64,000 bases of DNA from assembly GCF_044324785.1 (NCBI RefSeq), contig NZ_CP172127.1. One strand, written 5' to 3'. Of the stretch, positions 149-52,905 are shown piece after piece. How positions within the stretch are numbered: position 1 is the first letter of the stretch; every line of letters starts with the position of its first letter. The stretch is from Escherichia coli. GTDB taxonomy: Bacteria; Pseudomonadota; Gammaproteobacteria; Enterobacterales; Enterobacteriaceae. The position numbers were made by a program, and so were the translations under genes. The notes below the pieces were generated by a model. The model did not search any database, was not told the origin of the DNA, and saw only the letters and a list, made by a program, of their open reading frames with translations.

Positions 149-1492
149 TTAAAGCAAACCACAGCGACGTTTACTGCGTTCTTCCGCTTCCTGATAAAGC
201 TGGAACTCATCCAAAACCGGGCAGCCCAACGCCTGCTCAAATGCTTCGCGACTGGCATTACCGTGACTGCGTGCCTGCGTTTCATTACCCAGATTTGACT
301 GGAAGATCCCCGCCGCGCTAACAGGCAAGAAATCTTCATAGGTAATGGGTTGCGCCACTACCCAACCACGTTCAATTAAGGGCTGTGGATCGTCTCCGGG
401 ATGAATCGCCTGACGATGCGCCTCACCTGAAGGCGTCAGACGGTACCGGAACCATGCCAACCCTTGCTGACGCATTAAAAACTCACTGTCAGGAAAAGTG
501 CGGAAGGTTTCCTGTAAATGCATTTGGTGAGTGAGATTATCCTGCCCGGTTCCAGCGTTCCGCAGTAGATCATCATACAGTTGTCGCCCTTTCGGCGTTA
601 ATGCCACGCCACGCTGCTCTATTTCACCAAAGCGCGCGGTATGCGTGCCCTGTTTCTGCCCTACAAACAACACCGTCTCTTCCAGTGCTTTAAAGCTAGT
701 CTGGCGTAGTAAAATCGGTACCTCGCGGCGCGGCGGCCCTTCGATCAGAATTTTTGGTTCAATTCCGCATTCAGGCATCATCGACTGCACCCGGTCAATA
801 TCCAGCGTGCGTGGCGTCAGGTGGTTGATATGGCATCCAGGAAAACAGACCACATCAGCAATCAGACGATGTTCGTTATGCAAGGCGCGATAGGTTACTT
901 CATCCACCGTTGCTGACTGGTGCCAGCGAAACGTTTCCAGAGCTTCCTGCACAAACTCCTGTGCCTGTGTTTCGTTAAAACCGCCCTGCTGCTCATATTC
1001 CTCTAACAGTTGTCGACAACATGGGGTGAAGATATCGCGCTGACGCAGAATCTCCGCCGCTTTCTGGCGCAAAATTTCGTTCTCGATAAGCTCAAGGCGG
1101 AGTAATGAAGTAAAAACGCGGAAGGGATTACGCGCCAGAGAAGCATCATCAATGGGCCGAAATGCTGTCGAATGTACCGGCACCCCCGCCTGCGAGAGAT
1201 CGTAATAGCTCACCGGGTACATCCCCATAATGGCAAACATCCGCCGAAGAGTAGCAAGCTCTTGTGCAGTCCCAACACGAATCGCCCCATGACGTTCAAC
1301 ATTCAGTCGCGCCAGCTCGTCTGCATTTACCATTTTTTCGTGCAGTTGAGGATTGTTTTCCAGCACAGCCAGATTCACATCAGCTACCAGTTCCAGCAGC
1401 GTACCGTACTGCGGAACTTCTTGCTGGTACATGGCTGACATTGCCTGCGAAAACTGTTCCCGAATCTCATCCGCCGTGATGCTGTTCGCCAT
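149..1492 (-). CDS. ydcJ: DUF1338 family protein YdcJ (HglS-like 2-oxoadipate dioxygenase/decarboxylase family)
   Basis: 447-aa ORF beginning MANSITADEIREQ; position next to ydcI/trg matches K-12 synteny; length as expected. Confidence 0.85.
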   Translation of the reverse strand: MANSITADEIREQFSQAMSAMYQQEVPQYGTLLELVADVNLAVLENNPQLHEKMVNADELARLNVERHGAIRVGTAQELATLRRMFAIMGMYPVSYYDLSQAGVPVHSTAFRPIDDASLARNPFRVFTSLLRLELIENEILRQKAAEILRQRDIFTPCCRQLLEEYEQQGGFNETQAQEFVQEALETFRWHQSATVDEVTYRALHNEHRLIADVVCFPGCHINHLTPRTLDIDRVQSMMPECGIEPKILIEGPPRREVPILLRQTSFKALEETVLFVGQKQGTHTARFGEIEQRGVALTPKGRQLYDDLLRNAGTGQDNLTHQMHLQETFRTFPDSEFLMRQQGLAWFRYRLTPSGEAHRQAIHPGDDPQPLIERGWVVAQPITYEDFLPVSAAGIFQSNLGNETQARSHGNASREAFEQALGCPVLDEFQLYQEAEERSKRRCGLL

Positions 1493-4310: not shown

Positions 4311-4589
4311 TACCGTTGTCTCTCGTCCAGGTTTACTCCTGATAGAAAGTCATCGGCACTTGACGGTAATTACTTATGACCAAAAACCTCTTTGCGTCAC
4401 ATTTTTACAACAATTATGGCAGAGAAGAATAATGCCATTGGAATGAAGAGAGTAACGAATGGCTAAACCGAATGACGAAAAATTCTGGAAAACAGCACGC
4501 AATTTCGTCAAGTGATTATTTTCGTCCCTAAGGAAACCTCATAGGATGCCTGCGGGTGCCTGAGACTTTCTGTTTTCAGGCTAACCGGG

Positions 4590-4655
4590 AATCAGAAAGA
4601 CGAAGGCCCCGACCGATATTTCTATCAACCGAGGCCAACGAATGAACCAAGCAAT
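4590..4655 (-). ncRNA. sokB: Sok-type antisense RNA of the hokB locus (approximate boundaries)
   Basis: Minus-strand promoter-like TTGCCG-17nt-TAACAT overlapping the mokB start; hok/sok loci carry a short antisense RNA here; ends not determinable by eye. Confidence 0.35.
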
Positions 4656-4659
4656 TCAG

Positions 4660-4849
<190 letters not shown>

Positions 4850-5264: not shown

Positions 5265-5328
5265 CTTCCGATGTAGACCCGTATTCTTCGCCTGTACCAC
5301 GGGTCGGTTTTAGTACAGGCGTTTTCTT
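5265..5328 (+). ncRNA. rydC: Hfq-dependent small RNA RydC
   Basis: Sequence CTTCCGATGTAGACCCGTATTCTTCGCCTGTACCACGGGTCGGTTTTAGTACAGGCGTTTTCTT matches RydC as I recall it; TATAAT -10 at 5254-5259; terminal hairpin plus U-tract; ydcA/cybB spacer as in K-12. Confidence 0.8.
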
Positions 5329-20335: not shown

Positions 20336-22642
20336 TCAATACAACTCATCAAGTTTTCTCATCGCTTGTTCCCGTATTGCGCGCGTCTTACCGTTAAGCG
20401 CCAGCTGCCGAACTAAATCCAGTTCAGGGTTAACAAGCTCTAACGCCAGCAAAGGATCACGTTTCAGCCTCGCCTTTAATACATCAACTGGAAAACGGGG
20501 ATTATTCATCGCCACAATCCACCACTCGGGATCAATTTCTGCCGCCAGTACTGCAGGCGGTGTGTGGCGGTTGTTAAGTGCGCCGAACTTGAAAAATGTG
20601 AGATTGCTTTTCGCCAGTGTACTCCACCATATACGATCCGGTTGTTTTGCCAGTACATCCAGTTGTGCTAACGCATCGGGGTCTAGTGCATAATAAACAC
20701 GTAACGCTTCGTTAACCTGCGCACGGGAACTGTTTTCCTGCCTCAGAAAAAACTTCGCCCAAATATCATTGCGTGGCATATTTTGCTGTAATTCCTTGAG
20801 GACAACAGCGGGTAAATTATCCCAACTAACTAATGCACTCTCTAAAAAGTCCCAGCCTTCCGAACGTATCAGAGAGGTGGCATTTAATAGCATCTGGTCA
20901 TCAACTTCACCGTGGCTAATCAGCTCAGACAAAATCATATCAGCGCTGGTTTCATATGCATCTGAATCTGCTTTCGGATTATTTTTTCGATGCGATAAAG
21001 CGCGATGCCAAATTTTTTGTTTCATCGCCGTACTCAGATACTGATTTTTCGCCAGATTACTCCACCCCGCAGGATCGTTGAAACGTGTCAATAACCGTTG
21101 TAAAGCAGCGTCAGAGTGAATTACCTGCATATCCCCACAGCAAAAATAGGCAGGAAATTTTTTCTCCATCTTTTTAACAAAATTAAACTGTAAGTTATCT
21201 GGCAATGCTAAAAATAACACACGTATTAGATCATCGTCATTCTCGAATTTTTGGTGTAAATATACTGCTATTTTGTCACTCTCTTGTGGCGTCATCCGCA
21301 ACAATTGACCATGGTGTTTCATCTCTGCCAGCTTTGACGCTAAGCTTGTGACAACATCGTTTGATGAATCGTTCGCCAACTGCATTGCCTGATTGTAGGT
21401 GAGTTGTCCTCCAGCACCGACCTGACGAATAGAGAAATCATCACTGCGGATATAGCCATCAATAATGGATTCGGGCAATAACCACGCATCTTTATAAAGC
21501 TCCTGAATGATCATACCCCAATCTCTTTTCGCCAGAGTCATGACGATATCCAGAGGGAGATTTTCACGTAGCGCAAGATTCAACGGACCGACACCATCAG
21601 GTAGATGACTAATTCGCGTCATTATTTCGACAGAGAGCGGTTCACGGTCGAGCAACCCCAGAACAACAGGCTGGTAACCCAATTGCTGATCGGTCAACTC
21701 CAGAATCTCATTGTCAGGCATATATCTCGCCATACTTGCAATCGTTTGTCCATCATTGCTATTAATAAGTTGTTTGCGTAGGTTAGCTGAAATTCCTTTA
21801 AGCCTTGGGAGAGTTCGCATTATGGCAAGATCAAATGTCGCAATGTCTCGTCCTTCAAATGCAGCAACTTTGCCTTCATCCAGCATTTGTAATTCCTGCA
21901 CTAATTCAGGTGAAGGCTTAGGGCGAAACAGCGCTTCTTTTTTCATCTGATTACAGACATTCCCTGCTATGCGAATATTGCTTCGCTTAAAAATTTCTTT
22001 CAGAGCATCTTCATCATTTATTAGCCCCCAATAATATGCATCAGGATTTATTATCATCAGCGCTTTTTTGACATTTTCAGTGTCATTTTTGTCACTCGCA
22101 CGGACCATGAATTCACTATTTGTCGAAGACGCAACAACAGGTGCAATTATGTCATTGATAAATATCCCACGCGCATTAATACTCCCCTTAATCGTAGACG
22201 GATTATCGTAATATGAGTCGATAAATACCAGTCCACTTGCATTTATCGAACCGGTAATTAACAGTGGTGAATCCGTAACTATATTCGTTGCCGTCACGTT
22301 ACCGAGAATAACCCATGGATTAGAAAGAGAGAAAGTGGAAATATTACCTTTGACTGTCAAATTGCCAAGAACAATCAATTTTTGATTACTCTCTATATTA
22401 CCTTCTACCACTAAATCGCCACGATGCACTTTCCAGTCCGATGCAGATAAACCGAAGGGGACAAGATTCACGCTACTGTTGATAGCTTGTTCAACTTGTT
22501 GTTTATCTTCAGCGGTAGCCGCAGAAAAAAATGGTTCAATATCAACTGCATTTGCAACACATCGAAGTTCCGCCTGTACTGGAAGACTCAGCATAAACAG
22601 GGGAAGTAAACCTATCCAGCTGCAAATCCTGGGCTTAAACAT
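20336..22642 (-). CDS. ydbD: large secreted protein YdbD
   Basis: 768-770 aa ORF with signal peptide (MFKPRICSWIGLLPLFMLSLPVQA); AT-rich; start ambiguous by 2 codons; synteny. Confidence 0.8.
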   Translation of the reverse strand: MFKPRICSWIGLLPLFMLSLPVQAELRCVANAVDIEPFFSAATAEDKQQVEQAINSSVNLVPFGLSASDWKVHRGDLVVEGNIESNQKLIVLGNLTVKGNISTFSLSNPWVILGNVTATNIVTDSPLLITGSINASGLVFIDSYYDNPSTIKGSINARGIFINDIIAPVVASSTNSEFMVRASDKNDTENVKKALMIINPDAYYWGLINDEDALKEIFKRSNIRIAGNVCNQMKKEALFRPKPSPELVQELQMLDEGKVAAFEGRDIATFDLAIMRTLPRLKGISANLRKQLINSNDGQTIASMARYMPDNEILELTDQQLGYQPVVLGLLDREPLSVEIMTRISHLPDGVGPLNLALRENLPLDIVMTLAKRDWGMIIQELYKDAWLLPESIIDGYIRSDDFSIRQVGAGGQLTYNQAMQLANDSSNDVVTSLASKLAEMKHHGQLLRMTPQESDKIAVYLHQKFENDDDLIRVLFLALPDNLQFNFVKKMEKKFPAYFCCGDMQVIHSDAALQRLLTRFNDPAGWSNLAKNQYLSTAMKQKIWHRALSHRKNNPKADSDAYETSADMILSELISHGEVDDQMLLNATSLIRSEGWDFLESALVSWDNLPAVVLKELQQNMPRNDIWAKFFLRQENSSRAQVNEALRVYYALDPDALAQLDVLAKQPDRIWWSTLAKSNLTFFKFGALNNRHTPPAVLAAEIDPEWWIVAMNNPRFPVDVLKARLKRDPLLALELVNPELDLVRQLALNGKTRAIREQAMRKLDELY

Positions 22643-35284: not shown

Positions 35285-36274
35285 ATGAAACTCGCCGTTT
35301 ATAGCACAAAACAGTACGACAAGAAGTACCTGCAACAGGTGAACGAGTCCTTTGGCTTTGAGCTGGAATTTTTTGACTTTCTGCTGACGGAAAAAACCGC
35401 TAAAACGGCCAATGGCTGCGAAGCGGTATGTATTTTCGTAAACGATGACGGCAGCCGCCCGGTGCTGGAAGAGCTGAAAAAGCACGGCGTTAAATATATC
35501 GCCCTGCGCTGTGCCGGTTTCAATAACGTCGACCTTGACGCGGCAAAAGAACTGGGGCTGAAAGTAGTCCGTGTTCCAGCCTATGATCCAGAAGCCGTTG
35601 CTGAACACGCCATCGGTATGATGATGACGCTGAACCGCCGTATTCATCGCGCGTATCAGCGTACTCGTGACGCCAACTTCTCTCTGGAAGGTCTGACCGG
35701 CTTTACTATGTATGGCAAAACGGCAGGCGTTATCGGTACCGGTAAAATCGGTGTGGCGATGCTGCGCATTCTGAAAGGTTTTGGTATGCGTCTGCTGGCG
35801 TTCGATCCGTATCCAAGTGCGGCGGCACTGGAACTCGGTGTGGAGTATGTCGATCTGCCAACCCTGTTCTCTGAATCAGACGTTATCTCTCTGCACTGCC
35901 CGCTGACACCGGAAAACTACCATCTGTTGAACGAAGCCGCCTTTGATCAGATGAAAAATGGCGTGATGATCGTCAATACCAGTCGCGGTGCATTGATTGA
36001 TTCTCAGGCGGCAATTGAAGCGCTGAAAAATCAGAAAATTGGTTCGTTGGGTATGGACGTGTATGAGAACGAACGCGATCTGTTCTTTGAAGACAAATCC
36101 AACGACGTGATCCAGGATGACGTATTCCGTCGTCTGTCTGCCTGCCACAACGTGCTGTTTACCGGGCACCAGGCATTCCTGACAGCAGAAGCACTGACCA
36201 GTATTTCTCAGACTACGCTGCAAAACTTAAGCAATCTGGAAAAAGGCGAAACCAGCCCGAACGAACTGGTTTAA
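35285..36274 (+). CDS. ldhA: fermentative D-lactate dehydrogenase
   Basis: 329-aa 2-hydroxyacid dehydrogenase, GxGxxG (GVIGTGKIG); begins MKLAVYSTKQYDKKYLQQVNE. Confidence 0.95.
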   Translation: MKLAVYSTKQYDKKYLQQVNESFGFELEFFDFLLTEKTAKTANGCEAVCIFVNDDGSRPVLEELKKHGVKYIALRCAGFNNVDLDAAKELGLKVVRVPAYDPEAVAEHAIGMMMTLNRRIHRAYQRTRDANFSLEGLTGFTMYGKTAGVIGTGKIGVAMLRILKGFGMRLLAFDPYPSAAALELGVEYVDLPTLFSESDVISLHCPLTPENYHLLNEAAFDQMKNGVMIVNTSRGALIDSQAAIEALKNQKIGSLGMDVYENERDLFFEDKSNDVIQDDVFRRLSACHNVLFTGHQAFLTAEALTSISQTTLQNLSNLEKGETSPNELV

Positions 36275-37343: not shown

Positions 37344-40300
37344 ATGATTACTATTGACGGTAATGGCGCGGTTGCTTCGGTGGCGTTTCGCACCAGTGAA
37401 GTTATCGCCATCTACCCTATTACCCCCAGTTCCACGATGGCAGAACAGGCTGATGCATGGGCCGGAAACGGCTTGAAAAACGTCTGGGGAGACACACCAC
37501 GCGTGGTTGAAATGCAGTCGGAAGCAGGTGCTATCGCTACCGTGCATGGCGCTTTGCAGACGGGTGCCCTTTCAACATCGTTTACGTCATCGCAGGGTTT
37601 GCTGCTGATGATCCCGACGCTGTACAAACTGGCAGGCGAACTCACACCGTTTGTCCTACATGTAGCGGCACGTACCGTTGCCACACATGCACTCTCTATT
37701 TTTGGCGATCATTCCGACGTCATGGCGGTGCGCCAGACGGGTTGCGCGATGTTGTGTGCGGCAAACGTCCAGGAAGCGCAAGACTTTGCTCTCATTTCGC
37801 ACATCGCGACGCTGAAAAGCCGCGTGCCATTTATTCATTTCTTTGATGGTTTCCGCACGTCCCACGAAATCAATAAAATTGTCCCGCTGGCCGATGACAC
37901 GATTCTTGATCTCATGCCGCAGGCCGAAATTGATGCTCATCGCGCCCGGGCACTCAACCCGGAACATCCGGTGATCCGCGGTACGTCCGCCAATCCTGAC
38001 ACTTATTTCCAGTCTCGCGAAGCCACCAACCCCTGGTACAACGCGGTCTATGACCATGTTGAGCAGGCGATGAATGATTTCGCTGCCGCGACAGGTCGTC
38101 AGTATCAGCCGTTTGAGTATTACGGGCATCCGCAAGCTGAACGAGTGATTATCCTGATGGGCTCAGCCATTGGCACCTGTGAAGAAGTGGTTGATGAATT
38201 GCTAACCCGTGGCGAAAAAGTCGGCGTGCTGAAAATTCGCCTGTACCGCCCCTTCTCAGCCAAACACTTGCTACAAGCTCTGCCGGGATCCGTACGCAGC
38301 GTGGCGGTACTGGACAGAACCAAAGAACCCGGTGCCCAGGCAGAACCGCTCTATCTGGATGTGATGACCGCACTGGCAGAAGCCTTTAATAATGGCGAGC
38401 GCGAAACCCTGCCCCGTGTCATTGGTGGGCGCTATGGTCTTTCATCCAAAGAATTTGGCCCGGACTGTGTACTGGCGGTATTTGCCGAGCTCAACGCGGC
38501 TAAACCGAAAGCGCGCTTTACGGTTGGTATTTACGATGATGTGACCAATCTGTCACTGCCGTTGCCGGAAAACACCCTGCCAAACTCGGCGAAACTTGAA
38601 GCCTTGTTTTATGGCCTTGGTAGTGATGGCAGCGTTTCCGCGACCAAAAACAATATCAAGATTATCGGTAATTCCACGCCGTGGTACGCACAGGGCTATT
38701 TTGTTTACGACTCCAAAAAGGCGGGCGGCCTGACGGTTTCTCACCTTCGCGTGAGCGAGCAGCCGATTCGTTCCGCTTATCTCATTTCCCAGGCTGATTT
38801 TGTTGGCTGCCACCAGTTGCAGTTTATCGATAAATATCAGATGGTTGAACGTTTAAAACCTAGCGGCATTTTCCTGCTCAACACGCCGTACAGCGCAGAT
38901 GAAGTGTGGTCGCGCTTGCCGCAGGAAGTTCAGGCCGTGTTAAACCAGAAAAAAGCGCGCTTCTATGTGATTAACGCGGCGAAAATCGCCCGCGAATGTG
39001 GCCTGGCGGCCCGTATTAATACCGTCATGCAGATGGCTTTTTTCCATCTGACGCAAATTCTGCCTGGCGATAGCGCCCTCGCAGAATTGCAGGGTGCGAT
39101 TGCCAAAAGTTACAGTAGCAAAGGTCAGGATCTGGTGGAGCGCAACTGGCAGGCTCTGGCGCTGGCGCGTGAATCCGTAGAAGAAGTTCCGTTGCAGCCG
39201 GTTAATCCGCACAGCGCCAATCGACCGCCTGTGGTTTCCGATGCCGCTCCTGATTTCGTGAAAACCGTTACCGCGGCGATGCTCGCCGGGCTTGGTGATG
39301 CCCTCCCCGTTTCGGCGCTGCCGCCAGACGGCACCTGGCCGATGGGCACCACGCGCTGGGAAAAACGCAATATCGCCGAAGAGATCCCCATCTGGAAAGA
39401 GGAACTCTGTACCCAATGTAACCACTGCGTCGCCGCTTGCCCACACTCAGCTATTCGCGCAAAAGTGGTACCGCCTGAAGCGATGGAAAACGCCCCTGCC
39501 AGCCTGCATTCGCTGGATGTGAAATCGCGTGATATGCGCGGGCAGAAATATGTCTTGCAGGTGGCACCGGAAGATTGCACCGGCTGTAACCTGTGCGTCG
39601 AAGTTTGCCCGGCGAAAGACCGTCAGAATCCAGAGATTAAAGCCATCAATATGATGTCGCGCCTGGAACATGTCGAAGAAGAGAAAATCAATTACGATTT
39701 CTTCCTCAACCTGCCAGAAATCGACCGTAGCAAACTGGAACGTATTGATATTCGTACATCGCAGCTGATTACACCGCTGTTTGAATATTCAGGTGCTTGC
39801 TCCGGTTGTGGCGAGACGCCGTATATTAAATTGCTGACTCAGCTCTATGGCGACCGGATGTTGATCGCTAACGCCACGGGCTGTTCTTCAATTTATGGCG
39901 GTAACCTGCCCTCTACACCGTATACTACCGATGCCAACGGTCGAGGACCGGCATGGGCGAACTCGCTGTTTGAAGATAACGCCGAATTTGGCCTTGGTTT
40001 CCGCCTGACGGTCGATCAACACCGTGTCCGCGTGCTGCGTCTGCTGGATCAATTTGCCGATAAAATCCCGGCTGAATTACTAACTGCGTTGAAATCAGAC
40101 GCCACGCCAGAGGTTCGTCGTGAACAGGTTGCAGCTTTACGCCAGCAACTCAAAGATGTTGCCGAAGCACATGAACTGCTACGTGACGCAGATGCGCTGG
40201 TGGAAAAATCAATCTGGCTGATTGGCGGCGACGGCTGGGCTTACGATATCGGCTTTGGCGGTTTGGATCATGTATTGAGTTTGACAGAAAACGTCAACAT

Positions 40301-40868
40301 TCTGGTGCTGGATACGCAATGCTATTCCAACACCGGTGGTCAGGCGTCGAAAGCGACACCGCTGGGTGCAGTAACTAAGTTCGGCGAGCACGGCAAACGT
40401 AAAGCGCGTAAAGATCTTGGCGTCAGTATGATGATGTACGGTCATGTTTATGTGGCGCAGATTTCTCTCGGCGCGCAGCTCAACCAGACGGTGAAAGCGA
40501 TTCAGGAAGCGGAAGCGTATCCGGGGCCATCGCTGATCATCGCTTATAGCCCCTGTGAAGAGCATGGTTACGATCTGGCACTCAGTCACGACCAGATGCG
40601 CCAACTCACTGCTACCGGCTTCTGGCCGCTATATCGCTTTGATCCGCGTCGTGCCGATGAAGGCAAACTGCCGCTGGCGCTGGATTCACGCCCGCCGTCA
40701 GAAGCACTGGAAGAAACGTTACTTCATGAGCAGCGTTTCCGTCGTCTGAATTCGCTGCAGCCAGAAGTGGCAGAACAGTTATGGAAAGATGCTGCAGCTG
40801 ATTTGCAAAAACGCTATGACTTCCTGGCACAAATGGCCGGAAAAGCGGAAAAAAGCAACACCGATTAA
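37344..40868 (+). CDS. ydbK: pyruvate:flavodoxin/ferredoxin oxidoreductase (PFOR)
   Basis: 1174-aa ORF with two 4Fe-4S ferredoxin motifs (CTQCNHCVAACP, CTGCNLCVEVCP) and TPP-binding region (GGDGWAYDIGFGG). Confidence 0.95.
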   Translation: MITIDGNGAVASVAFRTSEVIAIYPITPSSTMAEQADAWAGNGLKNVWGDTPRVVEMQSEAGAIATVHGALQTGALSTSFTSSQGLLLMIPTLYKLAGELTPFVLHVAARTVATHALSIFGDHSDVMAVRQTGCAMLCAANVQEAQDFALISHIATLKSRVPFIHFFDGFRTSHEINKIVPLADDTILDLMPQAEIDAHRARALNPEHPVIRGTSANPDTYFQSREATNPWYNAVYDHVEQAMNDFAAATGRQYQPFEYYGHPQAERVIILMGSAIGTCEEVVDELLTRGEKVGVLKIRLYRPFSAKHLLQALPGSVRSVAVLDRTKEPGAQAEPLYLDVMTALAEAFNNGERETLPRVIGGRYGLSSKEFGPDCVLAVFAELNAAKPKARFTVGIYDDVTNLSLPLPENTLPNSAKLEALFYGLGSDGSVSATKNNIKIIGNSTPWYAQGYFVYDSKKAGGLTVSHLRVSEQPIRSAYLISQADFVGCHQLQFIDKYQMVERLKPSGIFLLNTPYSADEVWSRLPQEVQAVLNQKKARFYVINAAKIARECGLAARINTVMQMAFFHLTQILPGDSALAELQGAIAKSYSSKGQDLVERNWQALALARESVEEVPLQPVNPHSANRPPVVSDAAPDFVKTVTAAMLAGLGDALPVSALPPDGTWPMGTTRWEKRNIAEEIPIWKEELCTQCNHCVAACPHSAIRAKVVPPEAMENAPASLHSLDVKSRDMRGQKYVLQVAPEDCTGCNLCVEVCPAKDRQNPEIKAINMMSRLEHVEEEKINYDFFLNLPEIDRSKLERIDIRTSQLITPLFEYSGACSGCGETPYIKLLTQLYGDRMLIANATGCSSIYGGNLPSTPYTTDANGRGPAWANSLFEDNAEFGLGFRLTVDQHRVRVLRLLDQFADKIPAELLTALKSDATPEVRREQVAALRQQLKDVAEAHELLRDADALVEKSIWLIGGDGWAYDIGFGGLDHVLSLTENVNILVLDTQCYSNTGGQASKATPLGAVTKFGEHGKRKARKDLGVSMMMYGHVYVAQISLGAQLNQTVKAIQEAEAYPGPSLIIAYSPCEEHGYDLALSHDQMRQLTATGFWPLYRFDPRRADEGKLPLALDSRPPSEALEETLLHEQRFRRLNSLQPEVAEQLWKDAAADLQKRYDFLAQMAGKAEKSNTD

Positions 40869-40896
40869 ATGTTCTGGATAAGAATTATCCAATTCT

Positions 40897-41006
40897 AAAA
40901 AAAAGCCCGAACGACTGTTCGGGCTTGTCTTTTTATATGTTGGAAAATCAGTGGCAATGCAATGGCCCAACAGAAAATAAAATCTGTGACAATAAAGGCA
41001 TATAAC
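40897..41006 (-). ncRNA. micC: small RNA MicC (repressor of ompC/ompD mRNAs)
   Basis: Minus strand reads GTTATATGCCTTTATTGTCACAGATTTTATTTTCTGTTGGGCCATTGCATTGCCACTGATTTTCC...AAGCCCGAACAGTCGTTCGGGCTTTTTTTT, matching MicC; ydbK/ompN spacer; its hairpin doubles as ydbK terminator. Confidence 0.85.
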
Positions 41007-41233
41007 CCGCGCAGAATAACGTATAGCAAATTAAAAGTATAATTTTTATTTTGTATGTATTATCTCCAATACATTCACCAGACTTATTATCATTTCAGAA
41101 GAATTATTTGATTAAGGTTTTACTTAAGGCGTAACAAATAATATTTATCGGCTAACTGAACTTCTCCTTTAGGATGTTTTCACTCCCCGAAATGGGGATA
41201 AAAGGCAAATAAAATAACTAAAGGATTTATTCA

Positions 41234-42401: not shown

Positions 42402-42426
42402 GCTTATTCTTCCTCCTTTGATCTAA

Positions 42427-42942
<516 letters not shown>

Positions 42943-42960
42943 CACTAACGCCCGCACATT

Positions 42961-42985
42961 GCTGCGGGCTTTTTGATTCATTTCG
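42961..42985 (+). terminator. rho-independent terminator of uspF
   Basis: CCCGCA-CATTGC-TGCGGG hairpin plus CTTTTT. Confidence 0.75.
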
Positions 42986-43117
42986 CAAATGTGCTGACAT
43001 TTTCCCCTCTAATCCGTACCATACACGCCACTGTTTTTATATCAGATTTCTTATGCTGGGCATTCCGGCATGACGCATACTCTTCTGATGCCATATAACG
43101 AATTGAGTCGCTTTTAA

Positions 43118-44053
43118 ATGTCGCAAAATCAAGAAATTAGTAAGAAAGAACAATACAACCTGAACAAATTACAAAAACGTCTGCGTCGTAACGTGGGCGA
43201 AGCCATTGCTGACTTCAATATGATTGAAGAAGGCGATCGCATCATGGTTTGCCTCTCCGGGGGTAAAGACAGCTATACCATGCTGGAGATTCTGCGCAAT
43301 TTGCAGCAAAGCGCGCCAATCAATTTTTCGCTGGTGGCTGTTAACCTCGATCAAAAGCAACCGGGCTTCCCGGAACACGTTCTGCCCGAGTATCTTGAAA
43401 AGCTGGGCGTTGAGTACAAGATTGTTGAAGAGAACACTTACGGTATCGTGAAAGAGAAAATTCCAGAGGGCAAAACCACTTGCTCACTGTGTTCTCGCCT
43501 GCGTCGCGGTATCCTTTATCGTACCGCAACGGAACTAGGGGCGACGAAGATCGCACTGGGTCACCATCGTGACGATATCCTGCAAACGCTGTTCTTAAAT
43601 ATGTTCTACGGTGGCAAGATGAAAGGTATGCCTCCGAAACTGATGAGCGATGATGGCAAACATATCGTGATTCGTCCGCTGGCCTACTGCCGCGAGAAAG
43701 ATATTCAGCGCTTTGCCGATGCAAAAGCGTTCCCGATTATTCCGTGCAACCTGTGCGGTTCACAGCCTAACCTGCAACGTCAGGTAATTGCTGACATGTT
43801 GCGTGACTGGGATAAACGTTATCCGGGGCGTATCGAGACGATGTTCAGCGCAATGCAGAATGTGGTGCCGTCGCATCTGTGCGATACCAACCTGTTCGAT
43901 TTCAAAGGCATTACCCACGGTTCTGAAGTGGTTAACGGGGGTGATCTGGCGTTTGATCGCGAAGAGATCCCACTACAACCGGCGGGCTGGCAGCCAGAAG
44001 AAGATGAAAATCAGTTGGATGAGTTACGACTGAATGTGGTTGAAGTGAAATAA
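43118..44053 (+). CDS. ttcA: tRNA-cytidine(32) 2-sulfurtransferase
   Basis: 311-aa ORF with PP-loop SGGKDS and CxxC motifs; N-terminus [19 protein letters not shown]. Confidence 0.9.
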
Positions 44054-44181: not shown

Positions 44182-45555
44182 TTATTTTAATAACCGCACC
44201 CGGCACGTTTTTCCTTTAATCTTCCCGCCCTGCAACTGTTTCCATGCTTTATGAGCAACAGCCTGACGCACCGCGACATAGACATGCGCCGGATGCACGG
44301 CGATTTTGCCAATATCTGCGCCATCAAGCCCGATATCTCCTGTCAGCGCACCTAATACATCACCCGGGCGCATTTTGGCTTTTTTCCCGCCATCGATACA
44401 TAACGTTGCCATTTCGGCTTCCAGCGGCACAATGGAACTATTAACTGGCGGCGTTTGCCAGTTAAGTTTTATCTGCAACATGTCAGAAATGATATTGGCC
44501 CGCTGTGCTTCTTCCGGGGCACAGAAACTGATCGCCAGACCGCTATTTCCTGCACGCGCTGTGCGACCGATGCGATGTACATGAACTTCAGGATCCCACG
44601 CCAGCTCAAAGTTCACCACCAGCTCAAGCGATTTAATATCCAGACCTCGCGCAGCAACATCAGTCGCAACCAGTACACGGGCGCTACCGTTAGCAAAACG
44701 TACCAGGGTCTGATCGCGATCGCGTTGCTCCAGATCGCCGTGTAACGACAATGCACTTTGCCCTACTTCATTCAGCGCGTCGCAGACAGCCTGGCAATCT
44801 TTTTTGGTATTGCAAAACACCACACAAGAGGATGGCTGATGCAAGCTTAATAACCGTTGCAACAGAGGAATTTTGCCTTTACTGGATGTCTCATAAAATT
44901 GTTGTTCAATGGGTGGCAAAGCATCTGTTGAGTCAATTTCAATCGCCAAAGGATCGCGTTGCACTCGTCCGCTGATTGCGGCGATGGCTTCCGGCCAGGT
45001 TGCCGAAAACAGAAGCGTCTGTCGAGATGCAGGCGCAAAACGGATGACATCATCAATGGCATCGCTAAATCCCATATCCAGCATGCGGTCGGCCTCATCC
45101 ATCACCAAAGTATTCAGCGCATCCAGTGATACCGTGCCTTTTTGCAAGTGATCCAGCAAACGACCCGGCGTTGCCACGATAATATGCGGCGCATGTTGCA
45201 ACGAATCACGCTGCAAACCGAACGGTTGACCACCGCACAACGTCAAAATTTTGGTATTTGGCAGAAAACGCGCCAACCGACGCAATTCACCTGCCACCTG
45301 ATCCGCCAGTTCACGCGTAGGACACAGCACTAAAGCCTGGGTTTGAAATAGCGACGCATCAATTTGCTGTAACAAGCCGAGGCCAAAAGCCGCCGTTTTG
45401 CCGCTGCCGGTTTTCGCCTGCACGCGAACATCTTTTCCGGCAAGGATCGCCGGAAGCGCGGCGGCCTGCACCGGCGTCATGGTTAAATAACCCAACTCAT
45501 TAAGGTTCGTGAGTTGGGCGGGAGGCAAAACATTCAGGGTAGAAAAAGCGGTCAC
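44182..45555 (-). CDS. dbpA: ATP-dependent 23S rRNA-specific DEAD-box helicase
   Basis: 457-aa ORF with Walker A (AKTGSGKTAAF), DEAD box (VMDEAD), SAT and HRIGRTAR motifs; GTG start. Confidence 0.9.
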   Translation of the reverse strand: MTAFSTLNVLPPAQLTNLNELGYLTMTPVQAAALPAILAGKDVRVQAKTGSGKTAAFGLGLLQQIDASLFQTQALVLCPTRELADQVAGELRRLARFLPNTKILTLCGGQPFGLQRDSLQHAPHIIVATPGRLLDHLQKGTVSLDALNTLVMDEADRMLDMGFSDAIDDVIRFAPASRQTLLFSATWPEAIAAISGRVQRDPLAIEIDSTDALPPIEQQFYETSSKGKIPLLQRLLSLHQPSSCVVFCNTKKDCQAVCDALNEVGQSALSLHGDLEQRDRDQTLVRFANGSARVLVATDVAARGLDIKSLELVVNFELAWDPEVHVHRIGRTARAGNSGLAISFCAPEEAQRANIISDMLQIKLNWQTPPVNSSIVPLEAEMATLCIDGGKKAKMRPGDVLGALTGDIGLDGADIGKIAVHPAHVYVAVRQAVAHKAWKQLQGGKIKGKTCRVRLLK

Positions 45556-45584
45556 AATCTATTCTCGTGGTCATCGACGCAAAG

Positions 45585-45758
45585 TTAGCAGGCGCGTATC
45601 CTCGCAGATCTACGCTCACGATGCGACAATTTAATCGGTTCTTCATCGGGTGGTGGGTCAGGCATGGGTTGCGGGCGAGGGATTGGATCGGGCACAGGAA
45701 CAGGATCGCCAGGAATCGGTTCAGGGACAGGAATTTGCAAATAAATAAGTGTCGTCAT
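45585..45758 (-). CDS. hypothetical proline-rich small protein (57 aa)
   Basis: ATG preceded by GGAGGG SD at 5-nt spacing; product MTTLIYLQIPVPEPIPGDPVPVPDPIPRPQPMPDPPPDEEPIKLSHRERRSARIRAC; stop 29 nt before dbpA start; below the track cutoff. Confidence 0.45.
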   Translation of the reverse strand: MTTLIYLQIPVPEPIPGDPVPVPDPIPRPQPMPDPPPDEEPIKLSHRERRSARIRAC

Positions 45759-45815
45759 ATTTCCCTCCGGTCATTGGGTGGACTCTTAAAGGGTAGACGC
45801 TGATAAATAACAGGC

Positions 45816-45937
45816 AAAAAAAAGCCGACTCATCAAAGTCGGCGTCGTACGAATCAATTGTGCTATGCAGTAATTCAAAAAAGGAAGTAAGACAATATGG
45901 AGCGCAACGCCCATCGCTTGACGTTGCATTCACCTGC
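45816..45937 (-). ncRNA. fnrS: FNR-activated small RNA FnrS
   Basis: Minus strand reads GCAGGTGAATGCAACGTCAAGCGATGGGCGTTGCGCTCCATATTGTCTTACTTCC...GAGTCGGCTTTTTTTT, matching FnrS; zntB/dbpA spacer as in K-12. Confidence 0.85.
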
Positions 45938-45972
45938 AAGGGAGATATTGCCCTGAATGGGTAGAGAGTTTA

Positions 45973-45986
45973 TTGACTTCGCTCAA
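45973..45986. promoter_or_regulatory. FNR binding site of the fnrS promoter
   Basis: TTGAC-TTCG-CTCAA (consensus TTGAT-N4-ATCAA) centred about 42 bp upstream of the inferred FnrS 5' end, i.e. class II spacing. Confidence 0.7.
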
Positions 45987-46032
45987 ACTTTGCGGCGTTT
46001 TTGTATACAGACAGCCGGAAAAATTGCTTTTG

Positions 46033-47037
<1,005 letters not shown>

Positions 47038-49281: not shown

Positions 49282-50796
49282 TCAGGATGATTTATTCATA
49301 GCAGGAACCAACAAAAATGCGATAAATAACAGACCACTGATTAGCAGAAAGGTATCCGAAAATGCCATAGTTTGCGCCTCCCTCAGCATCAATTGACTTA
49401 ATAATTTGGTTGAAGCCAGTATTTCCGATGTCTGGTCACTTCCACTGCGATTAAAAAACAAAGCACTTCTGGAAATGAAGTCATTCACCGTATGGGGAAC
49501 AGAAACCATTTTTTCACCCATTCTCGAAAAATGAAAATTAGTTCGATTATTGAGAATAGAGCCACACAGGGCAATACCAATCGCGCCCCCAAGATTACGT
49601 GTTAAATTAAATACACCAGAGGCTAACTTCAGCCGTTCTTTTGGAATTCCCCCCAGCGTTAATGTTACGATGGGGGCCATCGCAAACTGCTGCGAAATCC
49701 CTCTAATTGCCTGTGGAAACAGTAACTCCTGCCATCCCCATTCGTGGGTTATCGGGGTAAAAAGATACATTGAAAACACAAATCCACCCAGCCCCGCCAT
49801 CAACAGCCATCGCAGATTTATTTTTTTACTTAACCAGAAGTAAAAGGGAACAGAAAATAACTGGAAAATACCTGTTGTGCAAACGGCAAAACCTATCTCT
49901 TCGGCATTTAATCCGCGAACCTGCCCCAAAAACACAGGTATTAAATATACAGTAGAGAATATCCCAACCCCTCCAGAAAAAGAAAAAAAACATCCCAGCG
50001 TGAAATTTTTATCCTTAAAAGCATGAAGATCCATTATCGGATTGGATATTGTAAGTGTACGCACAGCAAATAAAATAAAACTCACCAATGCCAGAACTGA
50101 TGTCAGCAAAATAGTATTATCATCCAGCCATCCCCAGCGCGCTCCTTCTTCAACGGTATATTCCAGACATCCCAGTGTCATGGCCAACAGGATAATACTC
50201 GGATAATCAGCAACTTTCAGTAAAGAGAGATCAGGTTTATCAAAATTAACCAGAAAAGGAATACTCAAAACTAAATATATGCCAGGTAATATATTGATAT
50301 AAAATAGCCATCGCCAGTCGAGATTATCAGTGATCCAGCCCCCCAGAGTTGGCCCTAGCGTCGGTGACAGTGAGGCCAGCGCACTGACTACCGCAGCAGC
50401 CAACCCCAGCTCTTTACCCTGGTAATAAATAAACGCCGTCGTGAAAACTAAAGGGATCATGGATGCGCCAGCCGCTCCCTGTAAAGCACGAAACAAAATC
50501 ATGATCTGAATATTCCATGCAAGTCCACACGCGATACTCATTAAAGTAAATATTCCCGCGGATAGAGTAAAAAGCCAACGAGTGGAAAATACCCGTGACA
50601 GCCACCCAGAGAGCGGAATAACAATAATCTCAGCAATTAAATAGCTGGTCTGAAGCCAGGCCATTTCGTCTTTACCTGCGGACAGACCACCACCTATTTC
50701 ATTTAGGGATGACGATACAATTTGAATATCAAGCTGAGCAATAAATAATCCCATACACATACTGGCGAAAGCAATATGTTTACGCATAGACATCAT
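49282..50796 (-). CDS. MFS transporter, DHA2 (EmrB/QacA-like, 14-TMS) family
   Basis: 504-aa hydrophobic ORF; start overlaps the upstream MFP gene stop (ATGA); visibly AT-rich; not part of the K-12 gene order I recall. Confidence 0.75.
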   Translation of the reverse strand: MMSMRKHIAFASMCMGLFIAQLDIQIVSSSLNEIGGGLSAGKDEMAWLQTSYLIAEIIVIPLSGWLSRVFSTRWLFTLSAGIFTLMSIACGLAWNIQIMILFRALQGAAGASMIPLVFTTAFIYYQGKELGLAAAVVSALASLSPTLGPTLGGWITDNLDWRWLFYINILPGIYLVLSIPFLVNFDKPDLSLLKVADYPSIILLAMTLGCLEYTVEEGARWGWLDDNTILLTSVLALVSFILFAVRTLTISNPIMDLHAFKDKNFTLGCFFSFSGGVGIFSTVYLIPVFLGQVRGLNAEEIGFAVCTTGIFQLFSVPFYFWLSKKINLRWLLMAGLGGFVFSMYLFTPITHEWGWQELLFPQAIRGISQQFAMAPIVTLTLGGIPKERLKLASGVFNLTRNLGGAIGIALCGSILNNRTNFHFSRMGEKMVSVPHTVNDFISRSALFFNRSGSDQTSEILASTKLLSQLMLREAQTMAFSDTFLLISGLLFIAFLLVPAMNKSS

Positions 50797-51824
50797 CTCT
50801 CATCAACACTGACGGTGACGGACAGTCCCGGGCGAAGAAGTTGCTTTAATTCCTTTGCGTCGTCAAATGCAATCCGTACCGGGACACGCTGAACAATTTT
50901 GGTGAAATTGCCAGTGGCATTTTCTATCGGAATCAAGCTGAAACTGGCTCCTGTCGCTGGGGAAAGGCTTTCAATGTGACCGTGAAACACTTCCCCTTTG
51001 AGAATATCAGCACGGATCTCAGCCTTCATTCCTGGCTTCATTCCCGCTATTTGGTTTTCTTTATAATTTGCATCAACCCACAACTCACTGACTGGTACTA
51101 GTGAAACTAACGATGTGCCGCCTTCCACCCAACTGCCTGTATGGGCGCTGCGGTTTGCGACAATGCCATCAATCGGCGCACGAACAAGGGTATATTCCAG
51201 ATCCAGTAGTGCCTGAGTCAAAGCGGCCTGAACTTCTTCGATACTTGCACGTACGTTTTCTTCCTGAGCAGATAAAACTGCCAGCCGTTGCTTCTCCACC
51301 ATGAAATCGTTCGCGGCTTTGCGCTCCTTTGCTGCGACCTGCTGGTAGTCAAACCTGGCGTTATCAATAATTTGTTGCGATATTGCCGCTGATTGTGCGA
51401 GTTTTTCATAACGTTCAGTATCTCGCAGGCGCTTTTGCTCCTCATGTTTTACTGCCTGCCATGTTTCACTGGCACTTTGAATTATCGACTGCTGCATCGC
51501 AATAGTGGCTTGAATGCTTTCGAGATTGGCTTTGCTACTTTTTATTTTTGCCTCAAGCCTGGCGACATTTGCACGATAATCCCGATCATCGAGACGCAGG
51601 ATAATATCGCCTTTTTTTACGCTCTGATTATCGCGCACCTCTATAGCAGAAATATAACCAGAAACTTTACTTGCCACCGTGGTGATATTACCACCAATGT
51701 AAGCATCATCCGTCGTCTGTATAAATCTTCCTTTGCTTACCCACCAGATAAAAAAGACAACGCCAGCCAAAATAATACCGATCGCTACCACCCCAATAAG
51801 CTGTTTTTTAGAAATTATCATCAC
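50793..51824 (-). CDS. HlyD/EmrA-family membrane fusion protein
   Basis: 343-aa ORF with N-terminal TM anchor, coiled-coil region and C-terminal beta-barrel-like region. Confidence 0.75.
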   Translation of the reverse strand: MMIISKKQLIGVVAIGIILAGVVFFIWWVSKGRFIQTTDDAYIGGNITTVASKVSGYISAIEVRDNQSVKKGDIILRLDDRDYRANVARLEAKIKSSKANLESIQATIAMQQSIIQSASETWQAVKHEEQKRLRDTERYEKLAQSAAISQQIIDNARFDYQQVAAKERKAANDFMVEKQRLAVLSAQEENVRASIEEVQAALTQALLDLEYTLVRAPIDGIVANRSAHTGSWVEGGTSLVSLVPVSELWVDANYKENQIAGMKPGMKAEIRADILKGEVFHGHIESLSPATGASFSLIPIENATGNFTKIVQRVPVRIAFDDAKELKQLLRPGLSVTVSVDER

Positions 51825-51917
51825 TCTTTACACCGTATATATCCGGAAACTTGCATTCGTCATATTTAAAATTTAACATGGCTTATTTGATGATTTCTGA
51901 CAAAATACCTACTGTAA

Positions 51918-52733
51918 ATGACAATCACACTGCAACCCAAAGCATCACCAGGGCATCACATTATCGGACTGGATTCGGAACATCTGAATGGAGGCACAGT
52001 TCCCTGGCATAAACATCTCTATGCCCAGTTGCTTTACCCGGCTGAAGGAGTCGTTCGTGTATGGGCTGGAGAAAGCGTCTGGCTAGTCCATGCCAGCAGC
52101 GCGCTTTGGCTGCCCCCACAAATGCCGCATAAGTTTGTTGCGACAGGCAACGTACTTTTAAAAACCGTACTGGTTTCAGAAGCGGAAAGTGAAACGCTGG
52201 GAAAAGTTTGCTTCATGACGGGTATTTCACCCCTGTTAAGAGAATTACTAATTGCAATTAACCAACTTCCACCGTCGCAAAGTACCACAGATAAACAACA
52301 GTTACGTTTTTCAGCCCTCGAGACACTGATACTTCAGGAAATAAAAATGGGGGTGAAAATGTCACTTGAACTCCCTTGGCCAAATGATGAGCGGCTACAG
52401 CAGCTTTGTGAGAATTTGCTAAACAACCAAGGGTATCTACCAACACTGGATAATCTAGCGGATAAAATTAACGTCAGTAGCCGTACACTCATGCGCTTAT
52501 TTGTTAAAGAGACGGGATTAACATTTCGCCACTGGGTTCAGCAAATGCACGTTATTTCTGCAGTGACGCTTCTTGATGATGGATATTCGTTGACCAAAAT
52601 TGCCCATCGTCTGGGCTATGCCTCAGCTGAATCGTTCGGCAATATGTTTAAGCGTCGAACGGGCTACTCGCCCGGTAAATTTACTCGTCGATTAACGATG
52701 CATGATTATGCAATCACAAGACAAATGATTTAA
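51918..52733 (+). CDS. AraC/XylS-family transcriptional regulator (cupin + HTH)
   Basis: 271-aa ORF; C-terminal AraC-type HTH (SRTLMRLFVKETGLTFRHWV...IAHRLGYASAESFGNMFKRRTGYSPGKF); divergent from the MFP-MFS pair, 93-bp shared promoter region. Confidence 0.75.
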   Translation: MTITLQPKASPGHHIIGLDSEHLNGGTVPWHKHLYAQLLYPAEGVVRVWAGESVWLVHASSALWLPPQMPHKFVATGNVLLKTVLVSEAESETLGKVCFMTGISPLLRELLIAINQLPPSQSTTDKQQLRFSALETLILQEIKMGVKMSLELPWPNDERLQQLCENLLNNQGYLPTLDNLADKINVSSRTLMRLFVKETGLTFRHWVQQMHVISAVTLLDDGYSLTKIAHRLGYASAESFGNMFKRRTGYSPGKFTRRLTMHDYAITRQMI

Positions 52734-52803: not shown

Positions 52804-52898
52804 ACCGGTCACCAGGACCCCAGGCCGGATTTAAGACGAGGATGCACTGCTGTGTGTACTGTAGAGTCTGGCGGATGTCGACAGACTCTATTTTTTTA
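52804..52898 (+). ncRNA. mcaS: small RNA McaS (IsrA)
   Basis: ACCGGTCACCAGGACCCCAGGCCGGATTTAAGACGAGGATGCACTGCTGTGTGTACTGTAGAGTCTGGCGGATGTCGACAGACTCTATTTTTTT matches McaS as I recall it; terminator hairpin plus U-tract; convergent with abgR. Confidence 0.8.
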
Positions 52899-52905
52899 TG
52901 CAGTT

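Follow-up and report, generated by a model that had tools for sequence, protein, structure and literature searches.

The minus strand of positions 45816-45937 of the window (the whole stretch of 64,000 nucleotides of E. coli DNA analyzed here) encodes the small RNA FnrS, 122 nt in length, with its 5' end (+1) at 45937 and its 3' end at 45816. We regard it as virtually certain that this is the known fnrS gene of E. coli, accompanied by its known class II FNR site. The gene and its FNR promoter are not new, having been characterised in 2010 and confirmed by ChIP-seq in 2013; the K-12 sRNA is said to have been characterised in that earlier year both by Durand and Storz and by Boysen et al. The case serves as a positive control, one in which an sRNA gene, a terminator, and a correctly spaced regulator site were recognised from raw sequence. 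In the same way, the comparative footprint described below (a fixed spacing, invariant TG/TCAA and C-13/A-12/T-8, and an A-tract) confirms known biology and is no discovery. What is said below of the RNA's identity and structure, of the box's sequence, position, and conservation, and of complementarity to targets comes from the present analysis, and FNR occupancy, anaerobic induction, Hfq dependence, and the repression of targets come from the literature on the identical sequence.

Identity and fold of the RNA

An Rfam scan of the whole window matched RF01796 on the minus strand at 45937..45820, with a score of 134.8 bits (E 4.4e-24), where the gathering score is 60, and the match extends over the full model, positions 1-119 of 119. 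In an alignment with fnrS of K-12 MG1655 (b4699, NC_000913.3 1409129-1409250), 122/122 nt are identical, so the initial annotation was right to name the FnrS sequence. It had placed the feature at 45816-45986, and this proves to be the span from the 3' end of the RNA to the far edge of the FNR box.

In the annotation of K-12 MG1655, fnrS sits between zntB and ynaL/dbpA. The window has the same neighbors, all on the minus strand: zntB (ydaN; 46033-47016) upstream of fnrS, ynaL, encoding a 57-aa proline-rich small protein (45585-45758), downstream of it, and dbpA (44182-45555), 29 nt after ynaL. Besides these neighbors and the 122-nt RNA, K-12 shares with the window the FNR box and the spacing of that box, along with the -10 hexamer and the terminator. 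Within promoter and RNA together, the sole change is in the discriminator at -4 (window 45941), where K-12 has T and the window has C. The T is the common form, found in 92% of species (115 distinct sequences, among the matches listed). Within E. coli, 5392 of the 5426 complete genomes contain the 401 bases around fnrS at 95% identity or more, as a rule in a single copy, and the 70-nt promoter allele of the window has an identical copy in 1359 of those 5392, or about a quarter. It is a lesser possibility that the C/T polymorphism at -4 could alter the strength of PfnrS between E. coli lineages.

The Rfam consensus structure and the minimum-free-energy fold both give a 5' stem-loop at nt 1-46 (45892..45937, minus strand), in which one helix joins nt 1-4 to nt 43-46 and another joins nt 7-18 to nt 27-38, leaving the loop AAGCGAUG. 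The first ten nucleotides of the RNA are invariant across species (among the matches listed). There follows a C/U-rich linker, CUUACUUCCUUUUUU, at nt 47-61 (45877..45891, minus strand), which the Rfam structure leaves unpaired and the predicted fold leaves mostly unpaired; its composition makes it a candidate for the anti-Shine-Dalgarno seed and, being U-rich, a candidate contact for Hfq. A second stem-loop occupies nt 62-87 (45851..45876, minus strand), as indicated by the Rfam structure and by the counts of pairs in other species. The initial annotation had described FnrS as complete with its terminator, and the terminator scan found it at 45816..45843 on the minus strand: an 8-bp hairpin (45843-45824; nt 95-114 in the Rfam structure) made up of GCCGACTT/TGAT/GAGTCGGC, with five G-C pairs among the eight, followed by T8 in the DNA, the U8 tail of the RNA (45823-45816). 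Hairpin and tail together make a putative Hfq-binding module.

To count covariation, 50 distinct species sequences were aligned and read against the Rfam structure. Standard pairs fill 95.7% of the cells, as against 29-45% when the partners are slid by one to three columns. At nine pairs both partners have changed in a compensatory way, most of these pairs lying in the terminator or the second hairpin, and in 500 shuffles the observed values were never attained. Taken helix by helix over the 50 species, helices 1 and 2, which form the 5' stem-loop, are paired in 100% and 91.7% of cases, with compensatory changes at two pairs; helices 3 and 4, which form the second stem-loop, in 95.7% and 98%, with compensatory changes at three pairs; and helix 5, the terminator, in 99.7%, with compensatory changes at four of its seven pairs. 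When the fold of the single sequence was compared with those of shuffled sequences, its stability showed little gain (z = -1.67). Support for the predicted fold comes from covariation, not from single-sequence stability.

A reading of fnrS as a dual-function (coding) RNA was considered and rejected. The mechanical list of open reading frames does contain two that overlap the gene on the minus strand, one of 47 aa (45786-45929) and one of 72 aa (45721-45939), but they run through the terminator and have no coding support.

The FNR box and the geometry of the promoter

A motif scan places the FNR box TTGAGCGAAGTCAA at 45973..45986 on the minus strand (the plus strand reads TTGACTTCGCTCAA). Distances are counted from +1 at 45937, the start given by the RefSeq annotation and by Myers 2013, and on that basis the box spans -49 to -36 and is centered at -42.5. 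It matches the consensus TTGAT-N4-ATCAA at eight of ten positions, with the TTGA and TCAA cores both whole. The box overlaps the -35 region, and its center lies within the range of -41.5 +/- 4 nt by which Myers et al. 2013 (PMC3688515) define class II. Table 1 of the same work gives the site at -42.5, under an FNR ChIP-seq peak at fnrS, and in its supplementary file 6 the fnrS site is the same 14-mer, TTGAGCGAAGTCAA. In the data of Myers 2013 (PMC3688515), the sigma-70 ChIP signal at fnrS is flagged as enriched under anaerobic growth, with listed values of 54 vs 11803. The initial annotation had spoken of a near-consensus site about 42 bp upstream, at a class II position, and had proposed checking it against FNR ChIP-seq data and the mapped start; the computed center, the published peak, and the published start all bear it out, and a non-activating distance is ruled out.

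How far these features are kept outside E. coli was seen in a scan of one genome per bacterial species, made with a degenerate pattern from nt 12-42 of the RNA. Since the pattern lies inside the RNA, conservation of the promoter is independent of the search. The scan yielded at least 120 loci in Enterobacterales, from genera that include Citrobacter, Enterobacter, Serratia, Yersinia, Erwinia, Pantoea, Dickeya, Pectobacterium, Photorhabdus, Edwardsiella, Hafnia, Arsenophonus, and Sodalis. Among the matches listed, 117 loci had enough flank for a search of the 125 bp upstream, and in 116 of them the best match to the FNR consensus has the very offset found in E. coli; in the one exception it is one base off.

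When 115 distinct promoter sequences from the matches listed were stacked without gaps, a footprint emerged. T-48, G-47, and the TCAA at -39..-36 never change, A-46 is kept in 95%, and the middle of the FNR box varies freely. Nearer the start, no sequence departs from C-13, A-12, and T-8, and 99% have G-14; this near-complete conservation (99-100%) therefore marks CAATAT, at -13 to -8 (45945..45950, minus strand), as the probable -10 hexamer. Positions -30..-25 and -80..-66 hold only 0-0.2 bits in the same set; neutral positions are therefore saturated. Conservation jumps to 100% exactly at +1 in these 115 sequences, a step that supports the annotated 5' end of FnrS. Farther upstream, an A-tract at -64 to -61 (45998..46001, minus strand) is 73-95% A, with up to 1.7 bits and unconserved flanks (among the matches listed). 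The tract is close to the FNR box on the upstream side, a position at which the C-terminal domain of the alpha subunit of RNA polymerase may dock.

From the center of the FNR box to the first base of the -10 hexamer is 29.5 bp, the canonical class II geometry. The center stands at -42.5 and not at the modal -41.5 because the discriminator is 7 nt long, and so the difference between fnrS and the usual class II FNR promoter vanishes when the distance is measured from the -10 hexamer. In other respects fnrS resembles class II FNR promoters such as those of dmsA, narG, nirB, and ydhY, which likewise have a 14-bp TTGA-N6-TCAA repeat overlapping the -35 region and no consensus -35. One of these, ydhY, also has its site at -42.5 in Myers 2013 (PMC3688515). 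A consensus scan of 45500-46300 found no sigma-70-type promoter, which is to be expected of a promoter that depends on an activator.

Could the box be a chance match, with fnrS under another regulator, ArcA or CRP for example, or transcribed constitutively? Statistics of the motif within the window might encourage the idea. The pattern TTGATNNNNATCAA, with up to two mismatches, occurs 60 times in the whole window when 41 occurrences are expected, so that such matches are frequent and the motif alone is not significant. Nor are perfect TTGA-N6-TCAA cores any commoner than chance: the window has three, 1.95 are expected, and 33 of 100 shuffles do equally well. The three are the fnrS box, the autoregulatory site of fnr, and an intragenic instance at 21078-21091, which is probably a chance match inside a 770-aa open reading frame. 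What sets the fnrS box apart from chance is not motif statistics but its fixed position and the conservation of its cores across species: its offset is identical in 116 of 117 species, and its cores are invariant amid randomised flanks (among the matches listed). There is in addition the FNR ChIP-seq peak over the exact 14-mer, together with the anaerobic enrichment of sigma-70, in the data of Myers 2013 (PMC3688515), and we find it scarcely credible that the match is fortuitous. A second way to detach the box from fnrS is to assign it to a neighbor; it might, for instance, serve the end of zntB as a roadblock or a site of repression. That gene ends at 46033, its stop codon 47 nt upstream of the box, with no terminator detected between the two, and the adjacency is itself conserved, zntB being directly upstream of fnrS in 93 of the 94 loci with enough flank (among the matches listed). 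Against this, the distance that separates the box from FnrS's 5' end and from the -10 hexamer is constant down to the nucleotide, and the gap from the end of zntB to +1 of FnrS ranges from 73 to 146 nt (both among the matches listed). Six loci of the Rahnella/Rouxiella type are telling, in that fnrS there has zntB on its other flank and on the opposite strand; the offset of the box is nonetheless the same in five of them, and the sixth is truncated upstream. Moreover, zntB (ydaN) is absent from those files of Myers 2013 that we used. Service to zntB is very improbable, if a shade less so than a match by accident.

It is more difficult to dispose of the idea that the main transcript is an fnrS-ynaL-dbpA mRNA, that its FNR-controlled leader gives rise to the sRNA as a by-product of partial termination, and that its role is to couple the synthesis of YnaL and DbpA to anaerobiosis. 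The ynaL start lies on the same strand, 57 nt past the 3' end of FnrS, behind a strong Shine-Dalgarno sequence (GGAGG), with dbpA 29 nt beyond the gene; the lack of any sigma-70-like promoter detected in 45500-46300 would fit, and ynaL may share an operon with dbpA, according to VanOrsdel et al. 2018. The terminator, however, is strong (eight pairs and U8), and compensatory changes keep it where a species lacks both ynaL and dbpA downstream. YnaL lies downstream of fnrS in just 17 of 120 loci, all Escherichia/Citrobacter/Enterobacter-like (among the matches listed), FnrS is documented as a discrete trans-acting sRNA (PMC11572966, PMC8915982), and dbpA is absent from the FNR expression and ChIP files of Myers 2013 that were available. 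It is therefore unlikely that the leader is the main product. A milder version, in which FNR could come to control YnaL, and the DbpA RNA helicase perhaps too, through partial read-through of the terminator, is improbable as well, though marginally less so; if true, fnrS would also act as a leader that responds to oxygen in Escherichia, Citrobacter, and Enterobacter. We continue with fnrS as a gene for a discrete sRNA, activated by FNR from its own class II site.

Pairing with target mRNAs and comparison with other sRNAs

FnrS has been found to be under the control of FNR and expressed anaerobically, and its pairing with the iscR mRNA is improved by Hfq (PMC11572966). Deletion of fnrS raises the expression of iscR 13-fold under anaerobic conditions (PMC11572966). 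The RNA's 5' end figures in published work as a second pairing region: that it pairs with azuC has been proven by compensatory mutations (PMC8915982), a finding that fits the invariance of nt 1-10.

Complementarity to targets was predicted with the seed alone (nt 39-62), taken from the window's own FnrS sequence. Against sodB, gpmA, iscR, and maeA of K-12, all four of them targets known from publications, the predicted duplexes range from -12.4 to -18.3 kcal/mol and cover the Shine-Dalgarno sequence and the AUG. The background was provided by 43 starts of open reading frames in the window, mechanically called and hence approximate, against which the same nucleotides give -8.1 +/- 2.4 kcal/mol, with at most one start as low as the targets. 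Full-length duplexes, in which nt 1-94 of FnrS were set against 90-nt target regions, were tried and rejected, as they gave unrealistic end-to-end pairing and separated targets poorly from background.

Among the starts within the window, the strongest pairing with the linker (-15.2 kcal/mol, with the Shine-Dalgarno sequence and the AUG covered) is that of a gene for an hglS/ydcJ-type 2-oxoadipate dioxygenase (149-1492, minus strand). This predicted pairing may be due to chance.

The course of events that best accounts for these observations is the following. The promoter would be of the sigma-70 type, with a weak -35 region and the CAATAT -10 hexamer, and would depend on the oxygen-sensing activator FNR. 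Under anaerobiosis, a dimer of [4Fe-4S] FNR would bind the box at -42.5 and recruit RNA polymerase, presumably through the contacts made by a class II activator. Transcription would start at window position 45937 and stop at the intrinsic terminator, producing the 122-nt Hfq-dependent sRNA. The C/U-rich linker and the 5' end of the RNA would then pair with the ribosome-binding regions of mRNAs that are unneeded without oxygen, among them those of sodB, maeA, gpmA, iscR, and azuC. Such pairing would block translation and lower the levels of the mRNAs, and the FNR regulon would in this way gain a negative control.

In giving an activator its repressor arm, FnrS is like other Hfq-dependent sRNAs that are made at the behest of a regulator, among them RyhB (Fur), OxyS (OxyR), ArcZ, MicC, and RydC. 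They have in common with FnrS a short transcript, an intrinsic terminator with its U tail, a single-stranded seed that pairs with ribosome-binding sites, and a single global regulator. FnrS differs from them in its input, which is the loss of oxygen as sensed through FNR, and in its set of targets, which comprises aerobic metabolism, oxidative stress, folate enzymes, iscR, and azuC. Its promoter has found a use outside its native setting: engineered E. coli Nissle therapeutics now employ PfnrS as a switch that is induced anaerobically.

Further FNR sites and other features of the window

The initial annotation had pointed out that the gene for the regulator lies in the same window and carries an FNR box of its own. 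Both statements hold: fnr, at 59029-59781, matches NF008365 with 529.9 bits, and the box TTGACAAATATCAA is found at 58996-59009. In Myers et al. 2013 (PMC3688515), the fnr promoter is repressed and has a site at -0.5, to which this box corresponds. As to whether fnr and fnrS are generally linked, more than 9 kb of upstream flank is available in 16 of the 120 loci among the matches listed, and fnr is seen in two.

The initial annotation had also named ydbK and ldhA as FNR-linked anaerobic genes of the window. They are present where it had put them, ydbK, encoding a pyruvate:flavodoxin oxidoreductase, at 37344-40868 and the gene for an ldhA-type D-lactate dehydrogenase at 35285-36274, but their ties to FNR fare differently. 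For ydbK the tie comes down to one weak ChIP peak, a low-scoring FNR peak at ydbK/ydbJ in a single dataset, to go by the available portion of Myers 2013 (PMC3688515). For ldhA it is unsupported, since the gene is absent from the text and supplements of Myers 2013 (PMC3688515) to the extent that they were at hand.

An FNR box that the initial annotation did not mention, TTGATCTAAATTAA, lies at 42418-42431 on the plus strand, about 83 bp upstream of the start codon of uspF (42508-42942), and it is a better FNR site than the fnrS box. On the other strand it reads TTAATTTAGATCAA, exactly the sequence that supplementary file 6 of Myers 2013 (PMC3688515) gives for uspF beneath an FNR ChIP-seq peak. 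Over 42942-43118, uspF is followed directly by ttcA, with no Rac prophage. In K-12, a prophage adjoins ttcA. Strain 504838 has an annotated intR integrase gene and a prophage next to ttcA.

Between smrA and McaS, at 49282-52733, lies an island that varies from strain to strain. It encodes an EmrB-like DHA2 MFS efflux permease together with an EmrA/HlyD-type adaptor, and also a divergent AraC-family regulator. Of 5426 complete E. coli genomes, 1316 carry the island, and a K-12 derivative lacks it. That count is close to the number of genomes with the window's fnrS promoter allele (1359), and because the two are nearly equal, the allele and the efflux island probably mark one lineage.

Four further RNAs in the window scored above their Rfam gathering thresholds: MicC (40889-41009, minus strand), McaS (52804-52899, plus strand), the sok antitoxin RNA (4554-4705, plus strand), and RydC (5265-5328, plus strand). 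Downstream of ynaI, at about 62692-63483, lies an IS1-like insertion sequence that thousands of plasmids match at 98-99% identity, and it is because of this element that the stretch from 40 to 64 kb has many plasmid matches.
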